A stretch of 64,000 nt of DNA from Candidatus Poribacteria bacterium (GTDB lineage: Bacteria > Poribacteria > WGA-4E > PCPOR2b). This document shows positions 5,531-54,721 of the stretch, piece by piece. Each line of letters begins with the position of its first letter. Positions within the stretch are counted from its first letter, which is position 1. The position numbers and the translations under genes are program-made. The notes under the pieces were generated by a model that was not told the DNA's origin, did not search any database, and saw only the letters and a program-made list of their open reading frames with translations. The DNA lies in the NCBI GenBank assembly GCA_965215015.1, contig OZ244042.1, forward strand, positions 2,336,001-2,400,000, written 5' to 3'.

Positions 5531-6619
5531 TCATCTATCCCCTAGGACCACTTTTAATTCCTTCACAAATCGTTCATTCTCTTCAGGGGTGCCAATCGTC
5601 ACCCGGATGGATTTGGGGAAGCCGTATCCCGCTACAGGACGAACAATCACACCTTTTCGCATGAGCGCGTCGGAGATTTTACTTCCGGGATGGTCAAAAT
5701 GCACCAGAATGAAGTTCCCTTCCGATTCGACATACGCCAGTTCCATCTGATCCAACGCTTCATAGAGAAATGCTTTGCCGATGGTGTTGACCTCTTGGCT
5801 ACGACGCACATGCTCTGCATCTTTCAACGCAGCACGCGCCGCGGCCTGCGCGACGAGGTTGCAGTTAAACGGTTGACGCACCCGATTCATCGTTTCTATA
5901 ATATCGGGCTCGGCGAGCCCGTATCCGATTCGCATCCCCGCAAGCCCGTAAATCTTGGAGAACGTGCGCGTGATGATGACGTTGGGTCGTTCGTGGATGT
6001 AGGGCAACGTCTGCGGATAGTCGGGGCGATCAACGTATTCGTAGTAGGCTTCGTCAAAGACAACGAGGACATCGTCCGGCACGCGCGCCATCAATTTCTC
6101 CGTCTCCGTTTTCGTAACCATTGTTCCGGTCGGGTTGTTCGGATTGGCGATGAAGATGACGCGGGTCTGATCAGTGATTGCATCCGCCATAGCCTCCAGA
6201 TCTTGCGTATAACCGCACATCGGTGTAACGATTGACTTCGCACTGAACACCTTGGCGACTAACATGTAGACGACAAAGGCACTCTCCGAGTAAATTACCT
6301 CATCGCCCGGTGATATGTAGGTCTCCCCGACCAGTTGCAGCACTTCGTTGGAGCCGTTCCCTAAAATTAGATTTTCGGGCGGAACGCCGAGGTGCCCTGC
6401 CAGATCCTGTTTCAGGTAGTAGGCATTTCCGTCGGGATAGAGGTTCACCTGCGTTGCTGCAGCTTGAATGGCACCCATTGCCAAGGGCGAAGGCCCCAGC
6501 GGGTTTTCGTTCGATGCCAACTTGATAATATCGGAGATTCCCAACTCACGCTGGACCTCTTCAATCGGTTTGCCCCCCTGATAGGGTTGGATGGTTTCAA
6601 TTCCGGGCTTTGGTCTCAT
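5531..6619 (-). CDS. hisC: histidinol-phosphate aminotransferase
   Basis: IKLASNENPLG, NPNNPTG, DEAYYEY, RTFSKIYGLAGMRIGY. Confidence 0.93.
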   Translation of the reverse strand: MRPKPGIETIQPYQGGKPIEEVQRELGISDIIKLASNENPLGPSPLAMGAIQAAATQVNLYPDGNAYYLKQDLAGHLGVPPENLILGNGSNEVLQLVGETYISPGDEVIYSESAFVVYMLVAKVFSAKSIVTPMCGYTQDLEAMADAITDQTRVIFIANPNNPTGTMVTKTETEKLMARVPDDVLVVFDEAYYEYVDRPDYPQTLPYIHERPNVIITRTFSKIYGLAGMRIGYGLAEPDIIETMNRVRQPFNCNLVAQAAARAALKDAEHVRRSQEVNTIGKAFLYEALDQMELAYVESEGNFILVHFDHPGSKISDALMRKGVIVRPVAGYGFPKSIRVTIGTPEENERFVKELKVVLGDR

Positions 6620-7942: not shown

Positions 7943-8698
7943 ATGGAACGTTTTCCTATTTTTGAATCATACGAATTTAATGAGGAGCAGAAGGTAGAAA
8001 TGGACCGGGTCGGGCATTTCGTTCTCCCCGGCATCTTGACGTCGAAGGCGTGTGAACGGTTGACCGAATCGCTATCGTACATTCAATCGCTTGTTCCAAA
8101 CGCAACTGAGGGGCACGAGCCGAACCGGTTTGCCGCAGAATACGACGAATTTTTGGAGAGCCTGATAGGGCATCCGCAGATGCTTACGCTTGCCCGACAA
8201 GTGCTTGGGCAGGACATCCGCTATGACCATTGTGTTACGCTTAACCGTCCGGGTGGCAATCAGGGGACCGGTTGGCATAGCCACACATACTCGGACAACG
8301 ATCCAAGCTTAGGATTCATACGCATCTTCTTTTACGTCAATGGGTTTGATGCCGATGATGGTGGGTTGAAGGCTGTTCCGGGGAGTCACCTGTATCGGGC
8401 TAAGTTCCGTTTTCAGACAGATGAGGAGTTTCAATCAGGATGGCTGGTGAATAAAAAGCACATGCTCACCGGCGAACCGTTGGAGATACAAGACTTGTCC
8501 GTTCCCGATGGTACGGTGGTATTGATGTGGACGCATGCCGCACACGCTGTCAGTCCGAGACAACCTAGTAGTGATACACGATGGACAGTGGTCTACGCAT
8601 ACCGTAACCCCGGGAGACCATCTGCAGCTCGTTGGATTAGTAAAGAATTTGAGTATAAACGCATCTACGGAGCTGAAGGATTGATGAGTCTTTATTAA
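7943..8698 (+). CDS. phytanoyl-CoA dioxygenase (PhyH) family protein
   Basis: GHFVLPGIL, WHSH, GGLKAVPGSH, HAAH...R facial-triad-like layout. Confidence 0.8.
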   Translation: MERFPIFESYEFNEEQKVEMDRVGHFVLPGILTSKACERLTESLSYIQSLVPNATEGHEPNRFAAEYDEFLESLIGHPQMLTLARQVLGQDIRYDHCVTLNRPGGNQGTGWHSHTYSDNDPSLGFIRIFFYVNGFDADDGGLKAVPGSHLYRAKFRFQTDEEFQSGWLVNKKHMLTGEPLEIQDLSVPDGTVVLMWTHAAHAVSPRQPSSDTRWTVVYAYRNPGRPSAARWISKEFEYKRIYGAEGLMSLY

Positions 8699-8974: not shown

Positions 8975-11038
8975 TTAAAACAGAAAGCCTGACTCAAAGA
9001 GGTAGGACATCTTGGTAAGGACTGCGCGCTCGCCGTTGGTGCTATCGGCGAATACGAGGAAGAGGCGGCTCTCTGGGGTGAAGCGGTAATCAAAGACAGA
9101 ATTGAAGTTGTATTTTACCTCATGAGACGTACGCTCGTCCACCCGCTCTGCGAAGATCCGCCAACCCATCCGCCGGGTGAATTGGTAGTTAACGTTCGCC
9201 CCAACGATGAGCGTATTGCGCTTTTCACGCCAGAGGAAGTTGCTCCCATTCAGGCTAAAGGTGAGTTTGCCAAAGAGGTTGACATTGGCAGATACCCGCG
9301 TAAACCGGCTATACTTGTTTTGACGAGGCCCGAATCGGTTAAACAACGATAGGCGTCCCCATTTGGGACGGTAACTAATATTTGAACCGATATATTGTCT
9401 GTTGTAAAGTGTACCCTCCTCGCGGCGGGTTCCACTTCCAACGAAGGTAAAAAGGTCAAACCTACCAATATCAACCCCGCTAGACAATCCGATCCGCCGA
9501 TCCCATAACAGATGCTGTCCGTTGAGTTTATAGAGATGGTAACCGCTGACGTAGTATCCGCGGACGAGGTTGTCTTTGTCGAATTGATGCTTGTATCGCA
9601 AGCGACCGAATGTCTTACGGAACGCCTCATCTTCCAATCCCATCTCATTTGGACGGAAACCGTCTGGCATATCTTCGACGCGAGCTTCGGCGCCCCAACC
9701 ACTCTCATGATCCCAGTCCATAGAGGCGTGGAATGCTGAGTGTATCTCACCATGGATCCAATCGGTCACATATTGGCCCCGGGCGGTCACGTCCCGGTGA
9801 AGAGCGAACCGACCATCTAACGAAAGCAAAGTCACATCTCGGTCCTCCTGATGCTTCTGCAAACCCATCGCGCCAATCACTGTGCGCCGACCAACGTTTC
9901 GGCTGACTCGCGTGGCAAGGAGATTTGCCTGCTTCTTCTGATCGCCGTCGTAGCGATCAACCATCGTTCCATAGGTATCGATGAGGACGAAATTATAGTC
10001 CCCAACTTTCCCCGTTGATTTTATACCGTAATCGATGTCCTGAACTCGGCGGCTGTAAAATAGGTCAAGCGGCAGTTCAAACAACTCCGACCCTTCGCGG
10101 AAAAATGGACGTCGCTCCGGTAGATACATCTCCCGATCGCTTGAGACGCTGATGCGCGTTGAATCGCTTTCCAACTGTGAGAAGTCCGGATTCAAAGTCA
10201 GATTTGTGGTGATGTTCGTCGAGAACGGAAGGGCAACGTCTAAACCTGCGCTCATATCCATCGACTCGCCTTCTATCGAGCGTTGAGTGACGTAGGGTAG
10301 AATATCAATCTTTCGATCCGTATTCACTTTGTTGAGGTCAAGGTCCGCCAACTTGCCGAACTCCGAAACCCGACTAAAGTCGTCTCCGGTATCCGCCCAC
10401 GTATAACGGACCCCTTCCATCGGATGGGGTCGCGCAAAGTTAATGCCCCATGTCGTTGTTTCGGGATCAAAACGGAGTTCGCTAAAGGGGATTGCCATTT
10501 CCGCTGTCCAATGGTTTCCATTCTTCTGGACCTTTGCCTCCCAGTTCGCATCCCACGCTTGGTCAAAGTTGCTCTCGTTACTGATTTTTGCGTCCATCTG
10601 TGTGCCCAGCGTGTTGACCGCCAGAACATAGCAATTGCGCTGATCATGATAGGTATCAAGCAGCACCTGAACCGTATCGTCCCGCCAGATGGGGGCATCG
10701 CGGCGCGTTTGCGTCTCACGCAACGCCTCCATATTCGGTTCGTCGCAGTGCACGCCGACATAAAGTGTATTTGCATCATATAGGACCATCGCCTTGGTGC
10801 CCAATTCTGCAGGGACACCGTGAGCACCTTCCACACGATAGAAATTGTCCGCAATCTCGGCTTGCTCCCAGACGCCATCGCAGAGGTCTCCATCAATAAC
10901 AGGCGGCGTATCGAGCCATTTGGCTTTGATAACACGACCGGAACTTTGACTATCAGCGAAAACTGATGTCCCTAAACACGCCATTATGATTAGAATCACC
11001 GAGCCTATCCATCGTTGTCGTTGAACATTTAACCACAT
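8975..11038 (-). CDS. CBM9-like / DUF5916 outer-membrane-type protein
   Basis: Signal peptide, PPVIDGDL, WTAEMAIPFSELRF, NPDFSQLESD, PERRPFFREG, FYSRR; beta-rich C-terminus ending in F; start likely ATG 11038. Confidence 0.8.
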   Translation of the reverse strand: MWLNVQRQRWIGSVILIIMACLGTSVFADSQSSGRVIKAKWLDTPPVIDGDLCDGVWEQAEIADNFYRVEGAHGVPAELGTKAMVLYDANTLYVGVHCDEPNMEALRETQTRRDAPIWRDDTVQVLLDTYHDQRNCYVLAVNTLGTQMDAKISNESNFDQAWDANWEAKVQKNGNHWTAEMAIPFSELRFDPETTTWGINFARPHPMEGVRYTWADTGDDFSRVSEFGKLADLDLNKVNTDRKIDILPYVTQRSIEGESMDMSAGLDVALPFSTNITTNLTLNPDFSQLESDSTRISVSSDREMYLPERRPFFREGSELFELPLDLFYSRRVQDIDYGIKSTGKVGDYNFVLIDTYGTMVDRYDGDQKKQANLLATRVSRNVGRRTVIGAMGLQKHQEDRDVTLLSLDGRFALHRDVTARGQYVTDWIHGEIHSAFHASMDWDHESGWGAEARVEDMPDGFRPNEMGLEDEAFRKTFGRLRYKHQFDKDNLVRGYYVSGYHLYKLNGQHLLWDRRIGLSSGVDIGRFDLFTFVGSGTRREEGTLYNRQYIGSNISYRPKWGRLSLFNRFGPRQNKYSRFTRVSANVNLFGKLTFSLNGSNFLWREKRNTLIVGANVNYQFTRRMGWRIFAERVDERTSHEVKYNFNSVFDYRFTPESRLFLVFADSTNGERAVLTKMSYLFESGFLF

Positions 11039-24955: not shown

Positions 24956-26113
24956 TTACCGAAATCTTGCAATCTAAAGTCCCGTCTTTTAAGGCAGAGA
25001 TACATATTGGCAAAGCGTGTTGATGGCAGCCTGTTAGGTGATACCTAACAGGCGTAGAAAACGTTGAATTTGCAGGTGAAATGGGGTACAATTGGCTTGT
25101 CTTTCGCGAGGGAATGCTACACCGTCGCTTGGCAGTATCCCTCACATTCTACAGCATAGAGAAAGACATTCCCATGAAACCTATAAATTCAAATGCTATC
25201 ACAATCATGGCAATCGAGAACTACATAAGCAAATAGGAACCTATGTGCATATCTACAATCACTGTATTGCGCTTCATAGACGCGCTCCTGCCAAAAAACA
25301 GATGATGCGTCCTTTCACGAAACTCAAACAGTTGTCCCAATATGCTCACGGTATGAACTTGGTGGCCCCACGGCGATTCAAGACGTAATAGCGCGAATAG
25401 ACAAAGGCTAGCAGTAATTCTTCCGCAACCTGAGTATAGCCACGACGGGTAAAAGCGGGGGCTTCGACTTCGGGTTAACAACCTATCTCCCTGTCTTAGG
25501 TGCTAACGATGTAGAGTCGCCACAGTTCCTCAAACGGAGTTGCAAAGTTGTCAAGCAAACGTCAAAACGGCATTCATGCCCAAAGAAACGAAGTGGCAAT
25601 TGTGAACAGACAAGACGCAAGCTGGCACGGCAGCATCGGAAAATAGCGAATTGATGTGAAGATTTCACTGGAAACTTGCTCATCAATTCACTGATGCGTA
25701 TAACCATTTATCCTTTGAAACGCTAAACCTAAGTGGCATGAAAAGCCTTTGGGGACGTAAGGTCAGCGATCTGGGTTTCGGTGATTTGATGAATAAGTGG
25801 TGATACATCGTTGACAAAAAAGGTAAAAGATTGCGTGCATTGCCCCGTGGTCTCCGCCCTCACGAGCTTGTAGCGAATGTGGCTTTATGAATGGAAATCT
25901 TGAGCTTCGTGATAGAACGTGGCAATGTCCGGTCTGCGACACAGAGTTGGCTATTGACCGCAATTCGTCGGTCAATAGCCATAGGGTTAGTCCCTCAACC
26001 CTTGAAAGGAGAGGACATAAGAGGGGGTTCGCTGTCCAGCCCTTGTCGATAGCACAGTTCGCGTCCCGAAGGAAGGGGACAATCCCCGTCCTTCAGGGTG
26101 GGGAGTCTGTCAA
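24956..26113 (+). mobile_element. tnpB: decayed IS200/IS605-family element with tnpB pseudogene
   Basis: TTAC followed by left-end hairpin (~24956-25015); ATG 25174 MKTYKFKCYHNHGNRELHKQI-like start with frameshift; CSECG...RDRTWQCPVC...DRNSSVN Zn finger/RuvC-III remnant; right end AATCCCCGTCCTTCAGGGTGGGGAGTCTGTCAA. Confidence 0.85.
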
Positions 26114-43189: not shown

Positions 43190-43839
43190 CTGCTGTCTCC
43201 TTTGGCGATAAAAACGTTGTTTCGGGAATCAATGGGGGAATCTTGTATGCCTTCCTGAACCCCCAATCTGTATCTCTATGAGCGACTGAGAGTTGAGCTA
43301 AACTAAATCCCTTTGATAGGTCAAGGATAGTCCTGCAACCTGAAGGATTATGTGATATCTCCTTCTGTTCCTCAGATCCGGTGGTTGTGTGATGGCGCGC
43401 AGTGTCTTGCGCGGAGGATTTGAAGGAGTTTCCCGGTGTTGCCTCGGGTGCTCTCTCTATCAGCGGATTCAACGCTCGGGTGCGTTTTGGTCCTGTATGG
43501 TTAAACATCTCTCATGTACCTCCTTTTTGGTTTATCAGTTAATAAGTTGAGAGTAAGAATCTGGAGAAAAATTATAGTGCTATCGGTTCCTGCATCTCAG
43601 GACTTCATCATTAACAACTATAGTATAACTCCAATGTTGCTAAAAACTTCATGAAAAAATTAAGATAATTTATTTAATGGATGTGCATAATTCGAGACAC
43701 ATTATAGCGGAATTCAAGCGAGGGTGCCTGCGTCAATCGTAGGGGCTTGGTTGCCAAGCTGGGACCCCACCCCCTACGCATTGAGAGGTGTTGAGAAGTA
43801 TACGTATCAAAACCTATTTATGAGCCCCCTCGGTTATTT

Positions 43840-44083
43840 AAGAGGGGCTCATAAAGTAGTAGGCACACTCGACGTGCCGTAAACCCCATAACCATTATGG
43901 CATATGGCTTGGCTAACGCTTAACTTTCATTAAACTCACACCCCTCATTGGGAAAAAGCAAAATATCCCCCTCCGTCGGTGGGGGATATTGCCTCATCTC
44001 CCGCCTGAGGCCCCTATCTGTATTCGTGTTTTCTGTGTCATCTGCTGCAGCCGCGATTCAGACAATAATTATGAGCACCCCTC
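43840..44083 (-). mobile_element. MITE copy, inverted relative to 42024
   Basis: AAGAGGGGCTCATAA...TTATGAGCACCCCTC; reverse complement aligns with 42024-42265. Confidence 0.82.
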
Positions 44084-44127
44084 ATTTATTTTATGCTAAC
44101 TCATTTACCTACATCTATTATTCTAAA

Positions 44128-44280
44128 TGTCTGAATTAGGATTTTCAGGATTAACCGCTTGAACCCCCTGCACCTTCTGGTTCTGAAAGGATCTAGGGGG
44201 TTCATTTGAACCCCTGCACATTCATGTTCTTAGCATGAATGTTGTAAGATCTTAACCGCTTTGAATGTTGACAAATCCCA
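44128..44280. repeat. palindromic module block 1 (upstream of recombinase)
   Basis: TGTCTGAATTAGGATTTTCAGGA, AACCGCTTGAACCCC, AGGATCTAGGGGGTTCATTTGAACCCC, CATTCATG-N6-CATGAATG. Confidence 0.85.
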
Positions 44281-44292
44281 AAGGAGACCATC

Positions 44293-45294
44293 ATGAATCC
44301 ATTAGCAGTCAAGCATATACCGCTTGAACCCCTCGTCTGCCGCCACGAGGACACACTGGATGAAAAGGGGCGCCTCAAAGATCTACAACCTTCTGGTTTG
44401 AAGCCAGAAGGCTTGAGGATCCTCCGTATCGCTGTGGCGTGGGATGCGTTATCGGAAAACACCAAGACGGCTTATCAGAAGGCGTATAAACGGCTTTCTC
44501 GCCGTAGCGTGGTTGTTGAAGATCTAACGGATGAATCACTCGCCTTGTGTATCTCGCAACTGGACGCCGATGGTCTATCGCCAGCCACGCTCTCACTTAC
44601 TGTCGCTTCGGTCAAGTGGTATTTCAAACATATCATGCGCTCTCCAGCCAGATGGACAACCACCGATAAGCGCCTGCTCACCATCAAGCGTGATACTGAG
44701 AACAGGGGCAATGGGCAAGTCGACGGTCTTTCGTGGGCGGATGTGTATTTCGTGTGCAGGTTCGCTGAATCTGAACAAAGCATCAAGGGCTATCGGGATT
44801 CTGCATTGATACGGCTCATGAGTGATTGCCTGTTGCGAATCTCTGAAGCGGTGGCAGTCAACCTTGAGGATATCCAAGAAAATGCCTTAATCGTCCAGTC
44901 GAGTAAGACGGATCAACAAGGCGAGGGTGTGGCGTTGTATATCGGGGATCGGACAATGCAGATGATACGCGGATACTGCACCGAAGCAAACATAACCACA
45001 GGGGCGTTGTTCAGGCGTATCGTGCGGGGCGATCATATCCAATCCACGAGGCTCACGGTCAATGGAGCTCGCTACGCTATCAAAGAATGGGCTTCTGTCG
45101 CTGGCATTGATGGCTTTATCTCTGGGCATTCGCTTCGTGTGGGGGCTGCGGTGTCTTTATCTCAAGCGGGGGCGTCGGTCGTGGAGATGCAACAAGCGGG
45201 CAGATGGAAATCACTACAGATGCCAGCGCATTATGCACGGGTAAAGGAAGCGGAAAAGGTGGCTGTGGCTCGGTATCGGTATAAAAAGGGGTAG
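44293..45294 (+). CDS. Cre-like tyrosine recombinase/integrase
   Basis: SENTKTAY SAM-like domain, RDSALI...LLRISEA, SSKTDQ, SGHSLRVG, QAGRWKS, PAHYAR (R-K-H-R-W-Y intact); SD AAAGGAG. Confidence 0.93.
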   Translation: MNPLAVKHIPLEPLVCRHEDTLDEKGRLKDLQPSGLKPEGLRILRIAVAWDALSENTKTAYQKAYKRLSRRSVVVEDLTDESLALCISQLDADGLSPATLSLTVASVKWYFKHIMRSPARWTTTDKRLLTIKRDTENRGNGQVDGLSWADVYFVCRFAESEQSIKGYRDSALIRLMSDCLLRISEAVAVNLEDIQENALIVQSSKTDQQGEGVALYIGDRTMQMIRGYCTEANITTGALFRRIVRGDHIQSTRLTVNGARYAIKEWASVAGIDGFISGHSLRVGAAVSLSQAGASVVEMQQAGRWKSLQMPAHYARVKEAEKVAVARYRYKKG

Positions 45295-45295
45295 A

Positions 45296-45394
45296 AAGGA
45301 TCTATCACATTCGGACTTGTTAGGGCTCGCCCTAACAAGCTGTTTTTAACATGAATGTTGAAGATCTAGGATTGTTAGGCTGGAATCTAACAAT
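45296..45394. repeat. palindromic module block 2
   Basis: AGATCT-bounded CATTC...ATGAATG module with nested CTTGTTAG-N8-CTAACAAG, followed by GATTGTTAG-N8-CTAACAATC. Confidence 0.85.
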
Positions 45395-45432
45395 CTTCTG
45401 TTATTTTACCCTTTTTCGCCATTCGTTTCTAC

Positions 45433-45494
45433 CTAAAACAAAAGGGCTGCGCGATTCAGGATTACCGATGATGCAGCCCTTTTTCTGTTTTTAG
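45433..45494. terminator. hairpin with U-tract upstream of the Cys-rich peptide gene
   Basis: AAAAGGGCTGC-loop-GCAGCCCTTTTT. Confidence 0.5.
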
Positions 45495-45531
45495 ATTCTG
45501 TTTTGGGCGGAACGATGGCAATAAGGAGAAG

Positions 45532-45807
45532 ATGATGTTTTCAACAAAAAGACGGTTGATGGCTATGGTCCTAATCGTTGGGTTCTTGGTAGCTAGTTTT
45601 GGGCTGTTCCCACCGCCGGCTTACAGCGATGATTGTTCAACAGCCACAAACAACTGTTGTGCTGCTATCGCTTTAGCAGCCTATTATTGTAACCTATATG
45701 GTAGTGGCAGTGGGGTGTGTGATGCATGGCAAAGGTACGCCGGGCAGAAGTGTTCAACCGCGGCTGAGATATGTGGCTATTCTGCCTATCATCTGTGCTA
45801 TAATTAG
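45532..45807 (+). CDS. secreted cysteine-rich small protein
   Basis: SD TAAGGAG; signal peptide ending PAYS; 59-aa mature part with 8 Cys. Confidence 0.8.
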   Translation: MMFSTKRRLMAMVLIVGFLVASFGLFPPPAYSDDCSTATNNCCAAIALAAYYCNLYGSGSGVCDAWQRYAGQKCSTAAEICGYSAYHLCYN

Positions 45808-45857
45808 CCCTCACTGTTTTCTCCCGCTGTAGCAGAGATTTTTTCCCTTACCTTTCC

Positions 45858-45984
45858 AAAAGATCTTAGGGGTTCAAGAGGTTCCGCGGTTTTAAAACCG
45901 CTTGAACCCCTTCCTCTTAACCCCTGCACATTCATGTTTTAAACCGCTAACAATCCCTCACCTAACAACCGCACCTAACAGGCG
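45858..45984. repeat. palindromic module block 3
   Basis: GGTTCCGCGGTTTTAAAACCGCTTGAACCCCT (45880-45911) identical to 50951-50982; CCCCTGCACATTCATGTT; three CTAACA half-sites. Confidence 0.85.
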
Positions 45985-46023
45985 TGGTTATAAATCTTAT
46001 TGAAACATAAAGGGAGATCGCCG

Positions 46024-47163
46024 ATGAAAACCAAGTTGATACCGAATCTTTCAATGAAGTTGAAAAAATCAATCTATGTGTCCGGTGCCCTGTTGGCAGG
46101 AATCGTCGTTTGTATGTCTGTATTTTTTGGGCTTCGGGAGCATAAGGAGAGGGAACTTCAGGGGAAAAGTAACTTCACTCTCCAAAACAATGGGATCGCC
46201 GCCGCGCCCCTAACAATGCCGCGTGGGAATTCAGAGGAAGAGTTACAGACGCCCGCAGAAAGAATTGTGCAGCACACAAAAAATAATTTTGTGTCTCTGT
46301 ATAGCGAAGATGAACTTGCAACGCAAGAGAGACAAAAAATGCTTGAGGTTATGAATTCGCCGGAGTACCTTAAATACATGAAAAACGCGCTGGAAAAAGG
46401 TTATAGGTTCCGTCATTCTGCTGAATTTTGGGAATCACACGGGTTTCCGTTAGAGAGGGATATGTTTAAGGATGCCTTCCGAAAAGAGTTTCCGACTGGG
46501 GTGCCTGAGATGCGTCTGAAAATGGCGAATCTATTTCTTTCCCAAGAACCGGTAGACCTGACTAACCCAAGCGCAGCGGCTTTGCAACGTCAAGAGGTGT
46601 TCCTTAAGTTTATCAAAGAAGAAGGTCGAAATATAGGCTGGCTGGGGGGACAGTTCGGGATCGATCTTGATGGTGCTATGCTAGCAGGGTGGGAAGAAGG
46701 ATCTGAGAGCACCCCTGCTTTTGTCTGGATAACTGATGTTCAAAGACATGCGGCGAGTATTGTCGCAGCCGCAGAAACGACCGGAGTCGATACACCTGAA
46801 GCACAGGTATCAGCTCCTTCATGGGATATGTCCTCCGTCATGGAAAGCCCCTCTGCATCTGATAGCGAAATGTCAGTGCCCCTCCCCCCGCTTGATACAT
46901 CAACTGACGCCGAGATTGAGGCAGCCACGAGACCTCAACCGCTCGATATGCCCCAAAATCACCGCCCTGATATGCCGGGCGAGATTCAAAGTAATCTTGA
47001 AGCATCCCTGAAATCGCAGTTTTCACCAGAGCAGTTCGATCGGGCGATGTCTACTTTAGAGCAGTATGGACCCGAAGAAGGGCTCCGCCGTCTACGTCAA
47101 AGCGATCCAGACTTTGCCAAGCAAGTAGAACAACATCGTAACCGAGAGGAGGTTTCCAAATGA
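46024..47163 (+). CDS. membrane-anchored hypothetical protein
   Basis: N-terminal TM helix, Pro/Ser-rich linker, C-terminal FSPEQFDRAMSTLEQYGPEEGLRRLR; overlaps next start (ATGA). Confidence 0.75.
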   Translation: MKTKLIPNLSMKLKKSIYVSGALLAGIVVCMSVFFGLREHKERELQGKSNFTLQNNGIAAAPLTMPRGNSEEELQTPAERIVQHTKNNFVSLYSEDELATQERQKMLEVMNSPEYLKYMKNALEKGYRFRHSAEFWESHGFPLERDMFKDAFRKEFPTGVPEMRLKMANLFLSQEPVDLTNPSAAALQRQEVFLKFIKEEGRNIGWLGGQFGIDLDGAMLAGWEEGSESTPAFVWITDVQRHAASIVAAAETTGVDTPEAQVSAPSWDMSSVMESPSASDSEMSVPLPPLDTSTDAEIEAATRPQPLDMPQNHRPDMPGEIQSNLEASLKSQFSPEQFDRAMSTLEQYGPEEGLRRLRQSDPDFAKQVEQHRNREEVSK

Positions 47164-47393
47164 AAGTGTTTATGATAGCGTGGGTAGTGTTTTGTTTCTT
47201 GGTAATTGCGGGGTTGTTCATTGCCTATGCAACAGACAACTTTCCCGGTGTCCCCGCTCCCCAACAAGTTGATATGGAAACAGAGGAAGAGTGTTCACCA
47301 TGTGAGAAGAATCTGAAACGTCTCAAAGAGGCGAGGGAACGGTGGGAGCGTGAGCGTAAAGCCCAAGCCGTTGACCGTGGAGATGCGGAATGA
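47160..47393 (+). CDS. small membrane/secreted protein with CxxC
   Basis: SD GAGGAGG, ATGA coupling on both sides, TM helix, EECSPCEK. Confidence 0.7.
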   Translation: MKVFMIAWVVFCFLVIAGLFIAYATDNFPGVPAPQQVDMETEEECSPCEKNLKRLKEARERWERERKAQAVDRGDAE

Positions 47394-47908
47394 ATCACAA
47401 GCAGAAGTATTTCTACGCCTCATTGGGCGCGGTGATTATGCTAGTTGGGATTTTGGTTGGTTCTATCGTTTCACCCCCTCTGATCGCACAGCGGAAGGAC
47501 ATGCCTGGGGATATAAAGTGTACCTCACTAATAGTGGTTGATAAGTCAGGTGAGCCTGCGATTGTCTTACGCACCGATGAGGCTTTGGGTAACGGTGTCG
47601 TCCTTCACAATCCTGTGGGTACTCCTGCGGTGCTCTTGGTCGCTGATGAAACGGGAAACAGTATCGCTGTTGCCGATAAGTCAGGAGAGGCTGCAGTGCT
47701 GTTACGTACGAGTGAATTAGCGAATCGTGTTATCGTCCGCAGTCCTTTAGGCAAAGATGGGGTTCGTCTTTCTGCGGGTAAAGTTGCCAATCGGGTAACG
47801 GTATCCAATCCTGAGGAGGCAAATGCTGTGCAGTTATACGCCGATGAAGTGGCCAATCGTGTTACCGTTCACAATCGGGTAGGTATCATCAGGTGGCAAG
47901 CACCGTAA
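47390..47908 (+). CDS. membrane-anchored beta-repeat hypothetical protein
   Basis: TM helix then five ~22-aa repeats (VxDKSGEPAIVLRTDE..GN). Confidence 0.75.
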   Translation: MNHKQKYFYASLGAVIMLVGILVGSIVSPPLIAQRKDMPGDIKCTSLIVVDKSGEPAIVLRTDEALGNGVVLHNPVGTPAVLLVADETGNSIAVADKSGEAAVLLRTSELANRVIVRSPLGKDGVRLSAGKVANRVTVSNPEEANAVQLYADEVANRVTVHNRVGIIRWQAP

Positions 47909-47912
47909 CCGT

Positions 47913-48133
47913 CAATCCTGATAATTTGTCTGAATCAGGATGGCTTGTTAGGCTTTGCCTAACAAGCGTCAGGATTAAAGGATTTTCAGGAGATTGTTAG
48001 GATCTTGTAGGCTGCCTATCAGACGCGCTAACAGGATTGTTAGGTATCACCTAACAATCTGCTAACAGACGGTTCTTAACCGCCTGAAGGATTTACCACA
48101 TTCATGTTTCAAACATGAATGTTGACAAATCCC
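47913..48133. repeat. palindromic module block 4
   Basis: TGTCTGAATCAGGAT module interrupted by GCTTGTTAGGC-TTT-GCCTAACAAGC; further TGTTAG/CTAACA hairpins; ACATTCATGTTT-C-AAACATGAATGT. Confidence 0.85.
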
Positions 48134-48157
48134 ATAAGTTTGGGGGAAGATTTAACC

Positions 48158-49011
48158 ATGAAATTAAAAAGCGAAAAATTACTTCTGCTTCTACCAATCG
48201 TTGTTATTGCAAATTCGATGGCACTATATCTTTGGATAAAACTTGGGTGGACTGTACCGACTCTCATTGCCACATTATTTGGGATTGGTACGATATTATC
48301 CTTCGTTTTGATTAATCGATTCTATGAATACCTACAAGACAATAGGTATTTCATAATTGGAAGTGCGATTTTTGTATTTATGGTAGGGATGTATCTCTGG
48401 AGAGGTAAAGGAATTCCCTATATCGGTATATCATTTGCCTTGCTTGGTATGTGTCTTTTATTTATGGTGGTCTTGAAGGGGCTGTGGCGGAATATTTGCT
48501 GTATCGCTGCTCTGGTTCTCTGTGGAATCGTTTTCATCTTTGGAGATAAAGAGGTTAACCAGGCCCCCACTCCTGCCATAGAGGAAGTCGGGGTGATAAA
48601 GCCGGGGAGTGCCGCCGCCGTTTCACGCGACATGGCCGATATGATGCACCGGATATTCCCCTCTGAACAACTTGAGGACCCAGCGGTTCAGGAAATAATA
48701 GAGGTTATAGCCTCCGATTCATTTCAGAAAAAGTTGAAACAACACAATCCGAAGACAATGGATGAATACATCCATTTCATTGTGTCCCACGGATTTACTG
48801 ATCTTTCAGAGGCAGATTTTCACAAAGTCCTTGATGCTGGGTACCAAGTTGCCGAAGCGGATTACAAAAAAGATCTTCAACATTCATGTTAAAAACATGA
48901 ATGTGATAGATCCTTGCCAAAAACTCTGGTAAAACCCCTGAGACTGAAGACGATGTGATGAAACACCGATTGGTTACAGCGATGGAGGAGTTCGGGTTGC
49001 TGGGGGCATAG
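48158..49011 (+). pseudogene. multi-TM hypothetical protein interrupted by a 47-bp palindromic insert
   Basis: About five hydrophobic segments; stop at 48892 lies inside insert 48869-48915; removing it restores the frame (YKAKNSGKTPETEDDVMKHRL...) to 49011. Confidence 0.7.
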
Positions 49012-49262
49012 AGGATTTTATGAAGGATCGTAATAATGTTACGCATTTAATAGTTTTAGACTTAACAATCTATTGTTTTTGCTATTGTTTTTTTTGATAT
49101 TCTATGAGTGAACTTGCCAATCGTTGTGAATAATTGATGTCGATTCTAAGTCGCCTTACCTATAGGAGCCATTTGATGTCTAACCTGTTGCACAACACAG
49201 TTTCGCTGTGCATGGCGAAATTTCTGACTCACCATCTACATGGCAAAAGGAGGTGAGCCTTT

Positions 49263-49448
49263 ATGCCACGCATACAACGCGTTAAGTCTGACTCGCGTAA
49301 AAATGGCACACTCGTCAGAACTCATTTACGGACGGACCCTGACGGAAATCGGTATAATCATCTCAAACCACCCACCCAAAAGCACATTCAAGATTATTTT
49401 GACAGGAAACTGGGAATACGCAGCCCTCGCCCCCGACGGCGCAGATAA
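49263..49448 (+). CDS. small basic passenger protein in IS1595
   Basis: SD AAGGAGGTGA; VKSDSRKNGTLVRTHLRTDPDGNRYN; conserved in second copy. Confidence 0.7.
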   Translation: MPRIQRVKSDSRKNGTLVRTHLRTDPDGNRYNHLKPPTQKHIQDYFDRKLGIRSPRPRRRR

Positions 49449-49463
49449 TTCTATCCGGGGATG

Positions 49464-50348
49464 CTACACAAAACACTCCCTGATAAACCTCTCAAACCCC
49501 TTGGGGCGGCCCCGATTGTTCCACTTAAAACAGGCTTCGGCCAGGTAAAGTGGTGTCCATTTCTTACTGTAATGATGATGCGTTCCGTGAAATGCTCGCT
49601 TGAGCATTGACCCAAACCCCTCAATCGTGTTCGTATGAGCGATGCCTTTGACATACTCTTTCTCACCGTGCTTCACCGTCAAATGAGGCATTAATTCCGA
49701 AGCACCTTCGTAACTCTGGAACTCATCTGTCATGAGAACCGATTGCTGGGGGTTAACAACATCTTTGATAAACCCAATAACACCCTGACGGGTTAAATCT
49801 GTGGCGATACGGGCAATAACCTTACCCGTTCGTTCTATTGCACCGATAACCGCTGTCTTTGCTGTCCCTCTACCCCGTTTCGGTGCAGGAGGCAGGTTGT
49901 CGTCATCATCTTTTCTTCTGCGAGGTTTGCCCCCCAAGTAAGTTTCATCACATTCGATAATGCCTTTCAAGAAAGTGGTGCCCCGGCATTCCATCTCTTT
50001 CCTTATTCGTTGCATCATATACCAGGTAGACATCTGATTCAGCCCAAGATGCCGGGCAAGTTGACAACTGGACAGGCTTTTCTTGGCATCTACCATCAAG
50101 GCGATCCCAACAAACCACTTAGTAAGTGAAATCTTAGTCCCTTGAAACAGCGTGCCAGGCAAAACATTGAAACTCGACTTGCATAGGTGGCAATTCCATC
50201 GTCCAATTTTACCATTTTCACGTTTTCTTGCCACTCTATCACTCCCACAATGGGGACACTCCGGAGCATCTCCCCATCGCACTTGTTCGAGATGCTTAAT
50301 ACAATTTTCATGAGTCGAAAATCGCTCGACAATCTCAAGTAAATTCAT
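49464..50348 (-). CDS. IS1595 (ISXO2-like) DDE transposase
   Basis: CPHC...CHLC zinc ribbon, SSCQLARHLG HTH, ECDETYLGG, KRGRG, MTDE, HTNTIEG, YLAE. Confidence 0.93.
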   Translation of the reverse strand: MNLLEIVERFSTHENCIKHLEQVRWGDAPECPHCGSDRVARKRENGKIGRWNCHLCKSSFNVLPGTLFQGTKISLTKWFVGIALMVDAKKSLSSCQLARHLGLNQMSTWYMMQRIRKEMECRGTTFLKGIIECDETYLGGKPRRRKDDDDNLPPAPKRGRGTAKTAVIGAIERTGKVIARIATDLTRQGVIGFIKDVVNPQQSVLMTDEFQSYEGASELMPHLTVKHGEKEYVKGIAHTNTIEGFGSMLKRAFHGTHHHYSKKWTPLYLAEACFKWNNRGRPKGFERFIRECFV

Positions 50349-50471
50349 ACTTGACTCCTTTATTCATGCGGGTTGAGACGATATGATTATCTCAAAAATA
50401 TGATTATCTCAAGAATACGCCAAAAAGTCAAGCCTTTATCTGTTAAGTGCGTAATTATTTTTGTTCTATGT

Positions 50472-50684
50472 TCATTTTTTAGGGCAGGTGGGTTTCCCAC
50501 TTGCCCTTCTTCTCTTTAGGCAGTCGGTCATCTTTTCGACGGACTGCCGTTTTCGTCCGCTACGAGTAACCATCTTTGGCAAAGGGATGGTGTCAGGTAG
50601 CATACGAATCAGTTGCCCGACAAATCCTAACACCATGATGGCAACCAGAACTGTGTGGGATGGGCTCCATGCAGAAAAGTCCAT
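50472..50684 (-). CDS. small membrane protein, probably truncated or chimeric
   Basis: SD AAAGGAG; MDFSAWSPSHTVLVAIMVLGFVGQ TM segment followed by low-information tail. Confidence 0.4.
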   Translation of the reverse strand: MDFSAWSPSHTVLVAIMVLGFVGQLIRMLPDTIPLPKMVTRSGRKRQSVEKMTDCLKRRRASGKPTCPKK

Positions 50685-50736
50685 AAGTGTCTCCTTTTTG
50701 TGGATCTCAATTGCTTGCAGAGGTTGTAAACCTAGT

Positions 50737-51162
50737 TGTCTGAATCAGGATTTTCAAACGCCTGTTAGCTCTCTGTTAGCGGAACGCTACCAGACGCGCT
50801 ACCAGACGGGATTATGAGATTTTCAGGATGAGGAGCTTGGGGGATTATACTTCATTCGGTTATTAACAGAAGCCTAACAACCCCTCTGTTAGCGAAAGCG
50901 CTAATAGCTTGTGAGGCTTTGAAGGTGCAGGGGTTCAAGCGGTTTTCAGGGGTTCCGCGGTTTTAAAACCGCTTGAACCCCTACCGCGGAACCCCCTAGA
51001 TCTTCTGACAAGAGGCTAACAAGCGGTTCTAAACCTGGTCCCCCTCCTGAGAATCCTTTAATCCTGAGAATCCTGATTCAGACAATTACCAGGATTGTGA
51101 GGTGTTCACTGCCTGTTAGCGCGTCTGATAGGCTTTGCCTAACAGAGAGGCTAACAGACGGT
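50737..51162. repeat. palindromic module block 5
   Basis: Two TGTCTGAATCAGGA modules in opposite orientation, multiple nested CTGTTAG/CTAACAG hairpins, GGGGTTC/GAACCCC modules. Confidence 0.85.
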
Positions 51163-51165
51163 TGG

Positions 51166-51885
51166 CTACGCTTCTTTCACGATTTTTGTGACTTTTCCGA
51201 TGATGGTCATTTCTTCGGTGACGATGATGTGGTTGTAGTTCGGGTTGGTCGGGGCAAGCAGCGCGTGTCCGTTGCGGAGGTAGAGCTTCTTGCACGTCAC
51301 TTCGCCTTCGACGTAGGCTATGACGGTCGTGCCGTTGTTCCAGTTGTTGCCGGGTTGAATCAGTAGGAGGTCGCCGTCTTCGATGCGCGGTGCCATCGAC
51401 ATGCCTCTGGCGCGGAGGAAGAATTCGCCCGGACCGAGGGTGTCTTTGTGCATGTATTCATACCCGACGACATCGCCGGGGTCCACCTGATCGAGGGTGC
51501 CGCACGGGATGTCGCCGAGAATGGGGACCGCAACGAAGTCGTCATCATCGACGGGGACAGCGTGTTCGAGGCGCATGGTCTCGCCTTGGGCTAAAGGGTC
51601 CTGTTTGCGGGGCGGTGTGGGTTGTCGGTCCGGGGGAATTTGACCGGGGGTCGAGTCTTCTCCGTAGAATAGATCACTAATAGTGAAATTTTGATGGCTC
51701 ACTTTGGTTAGGTATTTCGCGATTGCAAACAGTATTTGGGGATCAATCGCTTTGGCTTGATTGTTTACAATTTTGGAGATGTAGGATTGGGGCACGTTGG
51801 CAGCTTTTGCCATTTCGGTCTGTTTGGCTTTGATGCCTCGGTTTTTTAGAGCTGTGATTATTTCTTTGATGCGGTATTTTAACAA
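51166..51885 (-). CDS. CI/LexA-like repressor (XRE HTH + S24 peptidase)
   Basis: QTEMAKAANVPQSYISKIVN HTH; VPILGDIPCG cleavage-site region; ARGMSMAP Ser; VTCKK Lys; IIGKV. Confidence 0.9.
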   Translation of the reverse strand: MLKYRIKEIITALKNRGIKAKQTEMAKAANVPQSYISKIVNNQAKAIDPQILFAIAKYLTKVSHQNFTISDLFYGEDSTPGQIPPDRQPTPPRKQDPLAQGETMRLEHAVPVDDDDFVAVPILGDIPCGTLDQVDPGDVVGYEYMHKDTLGPGEFFLRARGMSMAPRIEDGDLLLIQPGNNWNNGTTVIAYVEGEVTCKKLYLRNGHALLAPTNPNYNHIIVTEEMTIIGKVTKIVKEA

Positions 51886-52111
51886 GATGTTTCACTCCTA
51901 TCTTGCTTCCGCCGTTATCACCATCGGATAATTTGCCGTGTTAGGTGAATTTTGTTGGCAGTCTGGTATCCATTGGCTATAATATACCCCTGATGGAAGT
52001 GTGTAGTAGGCTTTACGAAAAACAATAATAATGGTTTCACTAACTCTTATTATGACACACTTCCGCTGATTTTTCAAGGGGTATCTGGTAATGGGGGTTG
52101 ACGCTTAGATT

Positions 52112-52339
52112 ATGAAATTGACCATTGAGACGCTTATTAATGAGTCGGGGTTCCGTAGGAATTATATCTCGGAGCTATTGGGTGTCTCGGAGCAGGCATT
52201 GTCCTATAAGGTGAAAGGGCGACGCCGGTTTACGGAACTGGAGTTGAGGCAGCTGGCTATGGTGCTGGAGGTGCACCTGCGGATTGTGCGGCGGGCGGCG
52301 GGTGCCTCCCACTCGCGCTCTTCCCCGAACGACGAATGA
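52112..52339 (+). CDS. Cro-like HTH protein divergent from CI-like repressor
   Basis: YISELLGVSEQALSYKVKGRRRFTELELRQLAMVLEV. Confidence 0.8.
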   Translation: MKLTIETLINESGFRRNYISELLGVSEQALSYKVKGRRRFTELELRQLAMVLEVHLRIVRRAAGASHSRSSPNDE

Positions 52340-52349
52340 GGTTGGCAGT

Positions 52350-52654
52350 TGTCTGAATCAGGATTCTCAGGATTTGAGGATTTTCAGGAGAAGATCTATA
52401 ACCTTCAGGTTTACAACCAGAAGGTTAGAAGATCTTGGGGATTTAACTTTCAACGGTTTTTAACCGTCTGTTAGCGCGTCTGATAGGCTTTGCCTAACAG
52501 AGGGCTAACAGACGCAGGATCTAGGGGGTTCATTTGAACCCCCTAGATCCTTAGACGCGAACAAGTTAAAACCAGAAGGCTTGAAGATCTTGGAGGTATA
52601 AATCCTCAAAATCCTTTAATCCTGAGAATCCTGATTCAGACAAGATTGTTAGGC
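52350..52654. repeat. palindromic module block 6
   Basis: Copies of 51113-51160, 44188-44214, 44377-44421-like and 51052-51085 modules. Confidence 0.85.
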
Positions 52655-52671
52655 GGAAGGAAAAGGGGCTG

Positions 52672-52965
52672 ATGGAATTATCATATTTGAAGGCAATCGG
52701 GGTTGGGATTCCGAGCGGGTATACGATAGCCAATGGGGCAATGACCGCTGATAGCGAGCATGTCTACTTTGCAGCGGCGCATGGGAGCGCGCCGAAGTTG
52801 TTAATCTTCAACATGACGGGCAAGCGGATAGAGACAGCGGAATTCAGTATCCACGCCTTGCCGTCGAGTCGGTCGTTTGATGCCGTTGCGATTGATGCCG
52901 AAAATCTGTATCTGCTATCAAACAGCGAGGCGTTGGGGGTACTGGCAGACGTTTTCCCATATTCA
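52672..52965 (+). pseudogene. 5' fragment of a beta-propeller-like hypothetical protein
   Basis: Purine-rich SD; GAMTADSEHVYFA and DAVAIDAENLYLL repeats; sequence character changes at ~52965. Confidence 0.45.
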
Positions 52966-53425
52966 TTGTTGGAATCGAGTGCTATCACTTTATCGAAGTC
53001 CTCAATGGCTTTGTCATATTCACCTTTGCCGAGGGATTCTAGCGCACTTCTTTCAATCTCCTTTTCATCGGGGCGTTGCTGCATATCTACAAACATCAGA
53101 ACTGGGAGTACGACACAACAGAGGAATATGATAAAAAGGAATAGGCAATAACCTGATAAGGTTACAATCCTCTTGGTATCTCGAAGTTCTGCAAGTGCCC
53201 CAAAATAGAGACGGTAAATAAAGAATAATAAACAGAAACTGAGGGAAGAAATAATTACCAAAAAAACAACCCACCAAATAAACCCTTCTATAGAATTTAG
53301 AAGGCTAAGCATACCACGAAAATCGAAAGACGGTAATTTGGATAAAAGGAGGAAGAAATATATCCCGAAACCGATGAGTCGGAGCCTGTTGTGCCTAAGT
53401 CTTTTTGAAATAGGTAATTTCTCAT
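52950..53425 (-). pseudogene. membrane protein with one TPR motif, 3'-truncated
   Basis: Three TM segments then KGEYDKAIEDFDKVIALDSNN; downstream runs into the antisense of the 52672 fragment. Confidence 0.5.
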
Positions 53426-53779
53426 CTCTTTGGGCTATCTTCTTGTGTCCTTTTACCCCCAATTTGCACTCGCACCTGAAAATCCTTTAATCCTGAGAAT
53501 CCTGATATTGTTTCAAGATGCCAGTGGACGACTTGTGCGACACGACTCACGTTGAATATCCATATCAGGGATATTATCACACACCCAGACCAGACTAAGT
53601 AATGTAAAGTCTCGGCGTTTTGAAATTCCACCCCCAAAAACTTCTTAACCTCGCCATATAAGACCAATAAGCCAATAACAAGAGGGGGTAGCATCAGGCG
53701 GCTGGTTGCATAGACCTCCGAAATAGATTGGCGCACCGCATTTCCCACCTCTTTGTATAGTTCTAACGACAATTTATTT
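53422..53779 (-). pseudogene. membrane hypothetical protein, 5' end cut by IS1595 derivative
   Basis: Two TM segments; apparent start lies within the element end; contains in-frame repeat module at 53476-53506. Confidence 0.4.
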
Positions 53780-54239
53780 CGCACTTAACAGATAAAGGCT
53801 TGATTTTTGCCGTATTTTTGAGATAATCATATCGTCTAAACCCGCATGAATAGAGGTCTGCGTATTCCCAATTTCCTGTCAAAATAATCTTGAATGTGCT
53901 TTTGGGTGGGTGGTTTGAGATGATTATACGGATTTCCGTCAGGTTTCGTCCGTAAATGAGGTCTGACGAGTGTGCCATTTTTACGCGAGTCAGACTTAAG
54001 GCGTTGTATGCGTGGCATAAAGGCTCACCTCCTTTTGCCATGTAGATGGTGAGTCAGAAATTTCGCCATGCACAGCGAAACTGTGTTGTGCAACAGGTTA
54101 GACATCAAATGGCTCCTATAGGTAAGGCGACTGAGAATCGACATCAATTATTCACAACGATTGGCAAGTTCACTCATAGAATATCAAAAAAAACAATAGC
54201 AAAAACAATAGATTGTTAAGTCTAAAACTATTAAATGCG
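53780..54239 (+). mobile_element. non-autonomous IS1595 deletion derivative (inverted relative to 49042-50451)
   Basis: ~380 bp near-identical inverted copy of 49042-49423 joined to inverted copy of 50362-50451; transposase absent. Confidence 0.88.
53836..54018 (-). CDS. second copy of small basic passenger protein
   Basis: MPRIQRLKSDSRKNGTLVRPHLRTKPDGNPYNHLK; SD AAGGAGGTGA. Confidence 0.68.
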   Translation of the reverse strand: MPRIQRLKSDSRKNGTLVRPHLRTKPDGNPYNHLKPPTQKHIQDYFDRKLGIRRPLFMRV

Positions 54240-54721
54240 TTTTAGAAAACCGTCAGTTAGTCCTAATATACAAGAGGAGTATTTTCTGTGATCGATTAGC
54301 CGTTGCTTTTCCACCTCGGTCAGAAGTCTAGCTGTCAGATATGCAGCACCACCCGTTAGATTTGCAATCCCCAGTTTTATCTCTCATAGGGGAATTGCAT
54401 CTGTTATAGGAATTAGGCAGTTGAGCAATCAGGGGGACAATCTGTGTCGGAAATAGGAGATGATTTTCGCAATCGAAGTGCGTAAGTCCTACACAATATC
54501 TACATGCAATTACCTTTTTATCTCTAATAGCCCTGAACTGATCGATAGAGATTGTTGTTGACGGAAAAATAAGGACAGAGTAAAATGACTTATTATATAG
54601 AGACAATAGTGGGCAATTAGGTTTAATAATTGTCAAAAGATACCCGCTAGCCCCAGTGGTATAGGAACTTAGAAGATCCACGGGGAGATTCGAGAGAGAA
54701 ACGGTAGAGTTGGAGCAGCAG

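Follow-up and report, generated by a model that had tools for sequence, protein, structure and literature searches.

The DNA analysed here is a 64,000-nucleotide (nt) stretch of the closed, 5.94-Mb genome of a sponge-associated Candidatus Poribacteria bacterium (G000:C1:2336001-2400000; 'the window' denotes this stretch at its full length). Its positions 44128..52654 encode a Cre-like tyrosine recombinase, a four-gene operon, an insertion sequence and a divergent pair of repressor-like genes, and six intergenic blocks among these genes are assembled from five short sequence modules, the hairpins a-d and a module e, in varying order and orientation. A first-pass annotation, made from the sequence alone, had interpreted the arrangement as an undescribed recombination system in which the palindromes are sites or products of the recombinase and the genes behave as rearrangeable cassettes. 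That interpretation is partly supported by the present analysis, and nothing that we found shows the recombinase moving the modules. On balance we favour the reading that the modules belong to genome-wide families of extragenic palindromic repeats and of repeats resembling miniature inverted-repeat transposable elements (MITEs), which would have nested into one another to form mosaics and accumulated in a dispensable, strain-specific island, and that the recombinase is not the shuffling agent.

The stretch 44128..52654 is the core of a 10.9-kb insertion that is missing from the sister genomes (Table 1). Between the end of the upstream sigma-factor gene (43189) and the start of the downstream luciferase-like gene (54710) the window genome has a gap of 11.5 kb; among the 18 relatives of the same genus in which the gap could be read it measures 758-902 nt in 12, about 1.2 kb in two and 2.1-4.2 kb in four. 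Homology to four of these genomes (G003, G008, G015 and G005) ends at about 43665-43675 and restarts at about 54516-54546, and at the position of the island G003 has 166 unmatched nt. Within the insertion, two high-copy repeat families, the recombinase element, the operon, two IS1595 copies (one full, one deleted) and the repressor pair make up a patchwork. Where relatives of the window proteins could be named, they belong to Candidatus Poribacteria.

Table 1 Features of the island and copies of the operon leader (window coordinates unless another locus is named)
Feature	Position	Strand	Evidence or remark
Strain-specific insertion (island)	43676..54545	.	flanks: sigma-70-family gene, luciferase-like monooxygenase gene
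Two other dispersed repeat families (~170 and ~250 nt), left island edge	43666-43840; 43832-44092	.	dozens of copies genome-wide, blastn 70-90% identity
Left-end 22-mer of recombinase element, module e directly after	44106..44127	+	5 genome copies, 0-2 mismatches
Block 1: e-like head, b hairpin, c hairpin; 5' untranslated region of recombinase element	44128..44292	+	aligned against paralogues B, C, D and E
Cre-like tyrosine recombinase, 333 aa	44293..45294	+	Pfam Phage_integrase 61 bits; best PDB profile match Cre
48-nt d-type hairpin, in frame in recombinase gene (16 extra residues)	44373..44420	+	missing in paralogues B, C and D; BLASTP against P0002 gives a 16-residue gap
Block 2	45295..45531	+	c hairpin with nested a hairpin 45296-45366, then partial operon leader
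Operon leader, 3' two-thirds	45370-45517	+	nhmmer, leader profile positions 73-199, E 2e-21; includes a-type palindrome 45373-45392 and terminator
Cargo operon, four genes	45532..47908	+	paralogues in genome; tandem arrays in sister genomes
91-aa Cys-rich peptide, putatively secreted (operon gene 1)	45532-45807	+	signal-like N-terminus, many cysteines
387-aa protein (operon gene 2)	46000-47163	+	
77-aa protein (operon gene 3)	47160-47393	+	
172-aa membrane-anchored protein (operon gene 4)	47390-47908	+	
Block 3, inside cargo operon	45808-46024	+	
Block 4: e with embedded a hairpin, more a sites and half-sites, c hairpin	47909..48157	+	
Membrane protein gene; stop codon in loop of c hairpin 48866-48915	48158..48892	+	homologues begin at MKLKS
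IS1595-family insertion sequence (transposase 49464-50348)	49040..50452	-	Pfam DDE_Tnp_IS1595 116 bits, NCBIfam 179 bits; other copies 88-94% identity
Block 5: MITE-like unit, inverted e modules at ends, a and b modules inside	50737..51085	.	inverted repeat
CI/LexA-like repressor (helix-turn-helix (HTH) and S24 peptidase)	51166..51885	-	Pfam Peptidase_S24 81.6 bits, HTH_3; PHROG transcriptional repressor
Divergent promoter-like sites between repressor and Cro-like gene	51955-51983; 52077-52049	+; -	predicted
Cro-like small HTH protein, divergent from repressor	52112..52339	+	weak HTH_3 match, phrog_2328
Block 6: MITE-like unit, 41-nt inverted e arms (93% complementary), d, a, b, d modules inside	52350..52643	.	
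Truncated e module	53475..53510	-	direct and inverted repeat matches
Internally deleted IS1595 copy, inverted relative to 49040-50452	53780..54243	+	blastn to both ends of other IS copies
Leader copies outside the window	L029:3645-3850, 6079-6284, 8046-8251, 10417-10622; also L030, L031, L032, L033; G000 2858673-2858877, 3848834-3849038		

By profile comparison the recombinase is Cre-like, as the first-pass annotation had it, and its catalytic set is fully intact. A profile built from 13 family members matched Cre residues 72-338 in the PDB at E 4.8e-15 and XerD at 9e-8, and R182, K205, H279, R282, W305 and Y314 are invariant in the 13 members; they align with R173, K201, H289, R292, W315 and Y324 of Cre. 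The best NCBIfam matches, to XerD (63.8 bits, cut-off 329.6) and to the 'tyrosine recombinase/integron integrase' model XerA (63.1 bits, cut-off 220), fall far below their cut-offs. The genome has about 15 loci with recombinase homologues or fragments, among them two full-length and four truncated copies at 78-96% identity and four full-length but distant ones. Relatives are encoded in 481 stretches of the species-representative collection, and 76 of 78 related recombinase loci belong to Candidatus Poribacteria, so far as sequence matching can tell a multi-copy family restricted to this phylum. Among the papers listed by a full-text literature search, none was seen to concern Poribacteria repeats or this recombinase.

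The modules are real and far more frequent than chance would allow. A repeat search of 43500-53500 yielded 36 direct-repeat families and 54 inverted pairs, with modules in both orientations, and the six intergenic blocks do begin with the sequences that had been described. The long exact copies reported between them are identical: 44188-44214 and 52516-52542 (27 nt), 45880-45911 and 50951-50982 (32 nt), and 51052-51085 and 52610-52643 (34 nt). Module a (TGTTAG-N7/8-CTAACA) occurs at five sites in the window (25032, 45318, 45373, 47946 and 48038), four of them in the island, and not once in 100 dinucleotide shuffles; the copy at 25032 is the single outlier that had been noticed. Counted over genome, window and island, the modules number 54, 5 and 4 (a), 6, 4 and 4 (b), 4, 3 and 3 (c), 4, 2 and 2 (d) and 126, 5 and 5 (e). 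The claim that modules a-d are found almost only in the island stands within the window but not in the genome: a, like e, is spread throughout the genome, and only b-d are concentrated in the island.

Modules b-d represent variants of a single hairpin of about 45 bp with RGATCY at both feet; they are rare and are found chiefly in the recombinase element's 5' region. Their loops are 2-3 nt long, unlike the 6-8-bp spacers between inverted arms on which their proposed role as recombination sites had been based. Modules also occur inside open reading frames (ORFs), at 44373-44420 in the recombinase gene and at 48866-48915 at the end of the gene 48158-48892. When the protein of the latter gene was compared with its homologues for a C-terminus cut off by the c hairpin, all four homologues were seen to end earlier. 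Besides nested arrangements there are interleaved ones of the form A-B-A'-B', for instance at 50928-50996.

Genome-wide, a and e form repeat families with a strong extragenic bias: ORFs of at least 120 codons starting with ATG cover 80% of the genome and contain none of the 54 a and four of the 126 e copies. Looser 10-mer patterns for b and d gave many chance matches in genes (21/30 and 32/54, respectively), and for mosaics we therefore counted only blocks with at least two module types. The spacing of module a is narrowly set; among 56 sites found when 3-11 bases were permitted between the hexamers, 42 have seven and 12 have eight. The palindrome extends over 19-25 bp with variable flanks, and the centres of the sites dispersed in the window genome are mostly self-complementary with 3-nt loops. 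Module e comprises the first 14 nt of a unit of about 45 nt whose outer edge is sharp and in which CAGGAT-like subrepeats recur about every 10 nt. It forms inverted repeats at the ends of block 5 (24 nt) and of block 6 (41 nt; 52349-52389 with 52603-52643), and five further units with e in plus and then minus orientation lie elsewhere in the genome. Like blocks 5 and 6, at least four other units are non-coding, 200-420 bp long and bounded by inverted repeats of 24-41 nt beginning with TG; at four further places, each lacking a recombinase within 17 kb, e bounds units whose inner modules are mixed.

Module e also stands at the head of tandem arrays built from whole 100-, 144- and 154-nt units (G000:C1:3401950-3402950, 4098050-4098800, 730800-733400 and others), which are not CRISPR-like, because the entire unit is repeated. 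A further e-bounded block lies at a duplicated and interrupted gene segment (G000:C1:2717600-2719600). Because the corresponding reading frame in G003 is uninterrupted, events associated with e appear able to disrupt genes.

Twenty-six blocks with at least two module types, grouped into 18 loci, were found in the genome, and the order and orientation of their modules bear no fixed relation to the genes, which include PspA, flotillin, a glycosyltransferase, a GFO/IDH/MocA oxidoreductase, an enolase-superfamily gene and a Rex-like gene among their neighbours. Modules behave as insertions or deletions in the alignment of six paralogous recombinase loci, which share a left end consisting of a 22-mer, e and a b hairpin and otherwise differ by whole modules. 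Each of the five genomic copies of the 22-mer is followed by e and then by a recombinase copy or fragment; no inverted partner of it was found. Copy A, that of the window, has extra b/d and c modules, copy B alone has a 27-nt a hairpin inside e, which recurs in Block 4, and in copy E the 5' half is lost, with the truncation at a c hairpin in which an a hairpin is nested, a composite also present at 45296-45366. The segment 47927-47991 of Block 4 is 95% identical to the 5' end of copy B. Palindromes lie in frame within the recombinase ORF of three copies: the window copy (48 nt), copy B (27 nt) and copy D (51 nt). At G000:C1:7051-7080 paralogue B has a 30-nt, GC-rich perfect palindrome in frame, and nine extra residues there relative to the window copy.

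Compared with the closest relative, G003, the mosaic blocks are insertions at all three of the other loci tested, measuring 550 against 13 nt (3929 kb) and 615 against 34 nt (3649 kb) or lying within a 3,067-nt insertion (4741 kb); the 3929-kb block is a reversed and decayed 5' end of the recombinase element. Four public sequencing runs contain island DNA as short-read contigs that break at modules, and the joints listed for them are short-sided (20-59 nt). Those specific to X1 and X2 reach 3-5 times the local depth and may derive from other repeat copies or other strains; no rearrangement was demonstrated with these runs.

Outside the window genome, a link between modules and recombinase was not borne out. 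Module e is present in all 20 genomes of the genus that were searched (7-43 copies in the relatives), including three, G011 (42 copies), G002 (19) and G003 (7), that have no recombinase homologue at E <= 1e-20. Conversely, the 78 homologous recombinase loci of other genomes (1.13 Mb) contain one a and one e. At 55 other loci the density of hairpins is 0.27 per kb within 700 nt of the recombinase gene and 0.14 per kb elsewhere, a modest difference confounded by intergenic position, and no palindrome common to these 55 loci was seen. Copy numbers of the modules differ up to 18-fold among genomes of one genus. Module a is found 15 times in G018 and 0-7 times in the other relatives, with 0-6 matches to a reversed control pattern. 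Twelve of the 15 copies in G018 are an identical 19-nt hairpin, TGTTAGGCTTTGCCTAACA, within another multi-copy element of at least 400 bp (10 checked); this element (L126-L135) has no Rfam match. Most probably, the Cre-like recombinase acts for the multi-copy element to which it belongs, and the modules are not its substrates.

One lead towards a recombinase with cassettes comes from the operon downstream of it. The four operon proteins (91, 387, 77 and 172 aa) have no Pfam, NCBIfam or PHROG match, and the Protein Atlas holds only unnamed clusters for the 172-aa protein and nothing usable for the 387-aa protein. Operons of this family form tandem arrays in five sister genomes, where paralogues of the 91-aa peptide head the cassettes and every copy is preceded by an a-type palindrome. 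This palindrome, with nine bases between its hexamers, is part of a conserved leader of about 200 nt that also comprises two hairpins and ends in a strong terminator, and in which a segment CTCGAATCGC could pair with the left arm of the terminator. Two leader copies in the window genome have near-consensus sigma-70 promoters just upstream. Because of these promoters and the terminator at its end the element looks transcribed, and it resembles an undescribed 5' leader with an attenuator. RNAalifold predicted 57 pairs from 14 leaders, six of them with compensated changes and with a covariation term of -0.09, support that is weak because the sequences are too alike; neither the leader nor its arrays matched an Rfam family.

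From these arrays one might conclude that the Cre-like recombinase uses the a-type palindrome as its core site, at which operon and leader are excised, inserted and duplicated, the scattered a sites and mosaics being products or relics. The palindrome has inverted arms of 6-9 bp around 7-9 variable bases, and at all 13 leader sites of the five sister genomes the arms are conserved while the centres vary and are non-palindromic; each cassette is headed by such a site. Recombinase genes adjoin cassette genes or the leader, in varying orientation, at 12 of the 78 loci in other genomes (11 of the 58 with at least 15 kb), a minority, yet more than the 1-3% that a rough estimate from copy numbers gives for chance, and seven of 11 leader matches in the window genome lie within 2 kb of a recombinase copy. 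Yet the site sits inside a terminator-ending element with promoters before two copies and is in this respect leader-like; 66 of the 78 recombinase loci have no cassette gene; and the five arrays, at a conserved chromosomal locus, lack a recombinase-sized ORF in 9-14 kb, as judged by ORF length only and without a search for recombinase sequences. The dispersed a sites, with their mostly self-complementary centres and 3-nt loops, differ from the leader sites, and they lie inside strain-specific insertions, away from the edges. Tandem duplication moreover suffices for the arrays, because all cassettes are paralogues. We consider such a cassette system decidedly unlikely.

The proposed analogy with integrons fares similarly. 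A tyrosine recombinase does stand beside small genes separated by palindromes, the four-gene operon does belong to a cassette-like family, and the sister-genome arrays have one palindromic site per unit; the enzyme, however, is Cre-like and far below the cut-off of the integron integrase (IntI) model. Sites of the attC type are 57-141 bp long with an internal layout of R and L boxes, and the modules, at 19-50 bp, are unlike them in length. Integron cassettes are unrelated, mostly promoterless and all in one orientation, and the integrase gene is divergent, whereas here paralogous operons, which bring along their own promoter and leader, make up the cassettes, and the recombinase is co-oriented with them in the window and variably oriented elsewhere. 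A shufflon, in which inverted repeats lie within alternative coding segments of a single gene, was considered and set aside, as no alternative gene segments were seen and the repeats are extragenic. Cre/loxP and Xer/dif-type sites, including the dif modules of Acinetobacter plasmids, have arms of 11-13 bp. The Cre-like enzyme with its complete catalytic set and the inverted arms of the a palindrome around 7-9 bases recall these systems; the arms here are 6-9 bp and most dispersed a centres are themselves palindromic. That a Poribacteria-specific Cre-like family excises, inserts and amplifies operons at a lox-like leader palindrome, in integron-like fashion but with a Cre-type enzyme and with the a palindromes of the island as its relics, seems to us a long shot.

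We return to the favoured reading, that of palindromic and MITE-like repeats nested into mosaics. Under it, e would be the terminal inverted repeat, of about 45 nt, of MITE-like units, a would be a palindrome akin to one of the hairpins in the cargo operon's conserved 5' leader, and b-d would be variants of the RGATCY-flanked hairpin that usually resides in the recombinase element's 5' untranslated region. The modules are probably mobile, and units would enter, or disappear from, other units, intergenic DNA and, at times, genes, those surviving inside genes being in frame. They would pile up in the island because it is dispensable mobile DNA, consisting of the recombinase element, the cassette operon, IS1595 and the CI/Cro pair. 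The outcome would be nested and interleaved mosaics akin to bacterial interspersed mosaic elements (BIMEs), neisserial intergenic mosaic elements (NIMEs), Rickettsia palindromic elements and nested MITEs.

BIMEs and the repetitive extragenic palindromes (REPs) and REP doublets (REPINs) of enterobacteria and pseudomonads are short extragenic palindromes that form intergenic mosaics in varied order and orientation, with tens to hundreds of copies. The mosaics described here share with the BIME and NIME types, which are descriptive classes and not homologous families, their extragenic position and their construction from a few palindromic units in varied order and orientation, at 18 loci. They differ from BIMEs and REPs in that modules a-d have no consistent GTAG or CGTC tag and that their units nest and have a 45-nt inverted repeat at their ends. 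A link of the modules to a REP-associated tyrosine transposase (RAYT) was rejected, as neither of two Y1_Tnp gene matches, of RAYT or IS200 type (G000:C1:1533127-1533438 and 2414499-2414732), has a module a-e within about 1 kb. Classical REP-like palindromes headed by GTAG do occur in the window genome and its sister genomes (for example L111:8830-8857 and G000 915788-915815) and are separate from a-e.

NIMEs and Correia elements are intergenic repeat units with short inverted repeats that lie near variable or horizontally acquired genes; the present blocks resemble them in being intergenic and composed of repeat units with short inverted repeats, but have no sequence relation to them, their palindromes nest, and some of these lie in the 5' region of an element encoding a tyrosine recombinase. 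Rickettsia palindromic elements are palindromic repeats that are tolerated in frame within protein-coding genes. The in-frame insertions in the three recombinase gene copies are of this kind, except that the units are much shorter (27-51 nt) and mostly extragenic. Blocks 5 and 6, lastly, have the terminal inverted repeats around a short non-coding body that characterise MITEs; they differ in that their interior is a variable mosaic and that the end module also heads the tandem arrays of 100-154-nt units, and neither target-site duplication nor autonomous partner was found.

Several observations weigh against the favoured reading. Target-site duplications are visible neither at seven e-bounded units nor at two sites compared with G003, no clean empty site was seen at any block examined, including the loci compared with G003, and no transposase was found between e ends, nor any other that could move the e-bounded units. 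Module a is expanded only in the window genome (54 copies against 0-15 in 19 relatives), which is also the richest in recombinase copies, and its fixed geometry would suit a tyrosine recombinase core site. Its centres and outer stems are variable yet mostly complementary, and the three stem positions at which c and d differ are each compensated in the opposite arm, both of which point to a possible selected function. Finally, a recombinase homologue or fragment lies no more than 5 kb from six of the 18 mosaic loci, compared with 2.7% of the genome. To this extent the enrichment near recombinase genes that the first-pass annotation had envisaged does exist in the window genome; the six loci are not independent, however, because they are copies or fragments of one element with e, b and d in its shared 5' region, and the remaining 12 have no recombinase nearby, several of them lying between housekeeping genes.

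The lack of target duplications would be accounted for if the mosaics were by-products of replication or repair at palindromes, through template switching, breakage at hairpin tips or gene conversion, in non-essential DNA and with no dedicated enzyme. The interleaved arrangements alongside the nested ones, deletions, such as that of copy E, with an end in a hairpin, and the fragments of the 5' end of the recombinase element built into the 3929-kb block are consistent with such an origin. Fifty-four dispersed 19-bp palindromes of fixed spacing and 126 copies of e with a sharp outer edge fit it poorly, and we regard it as very improbable.

The compensated changes could instead indicate that the hairpins are not mobile DNA but RNA or DNA structures selected by the host, such as terminators, messenger RNA stabilisers, insulators or protein-binding sites. 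Their strictly extragenic position would agree with this, as would the a hairpin forming stem P3 of the conserved leader in its native context and the c hairpins that are followed by a common motif, TGAATGTTGACAAATCCC, ahead of two genes. Modules b-d have no T-run, though, and neither terminator-like sites in the region (13, against 11.3 +/- 3.5 in shuffles) nor promoter-like sites (20, against 16.2 +/- 3.9) are in excess; Rfam returned nothing at threshold for the island. Nor would host selection readily explain modules within coding sequence, orthologous intergenic spaces of G003 without modules, an order and orientation unrelated to the genes or a copy number that varies so widely within the genus. 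We hold this explanation to be unlikely.

Two further features of the island deserve mention. The full and the deleted IS1595 copy are inverted relative to each other, 3.3 kb apart, and bracket the repressor pair and two further genes. The CI/Cro-like pair, which occurs only once in the genome, is itself bracketed by a 48-nt inverted repeat (51044-51091 and 52343-52390, 90% complementary) to which the inner ends of the two e-bounded blocks give rise.

Irrespective of how the mosaics arose, the seemingly Poribacteria-restricted, multi-copy Cre-like family with its repeated linkage to a cassette-like operon family is worth keeping in view, as is the conserved, terminator-ending leader ahead of these operons, for which Rfam has no match. 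Were the leader palindrome a substrate of the recombinase, this would represent a new kind of cassette system. If, on the other hand, the favoured reading is correct, the island would provide a clear case, in an uncultured phylum of sponge symbionts, of palindromic repeats that nest into mosaics, fill dispensable DNA and enter genes in frame; it would establish no new principle, but the annotation of these genomes and the understanding of their repeat load would benefit.

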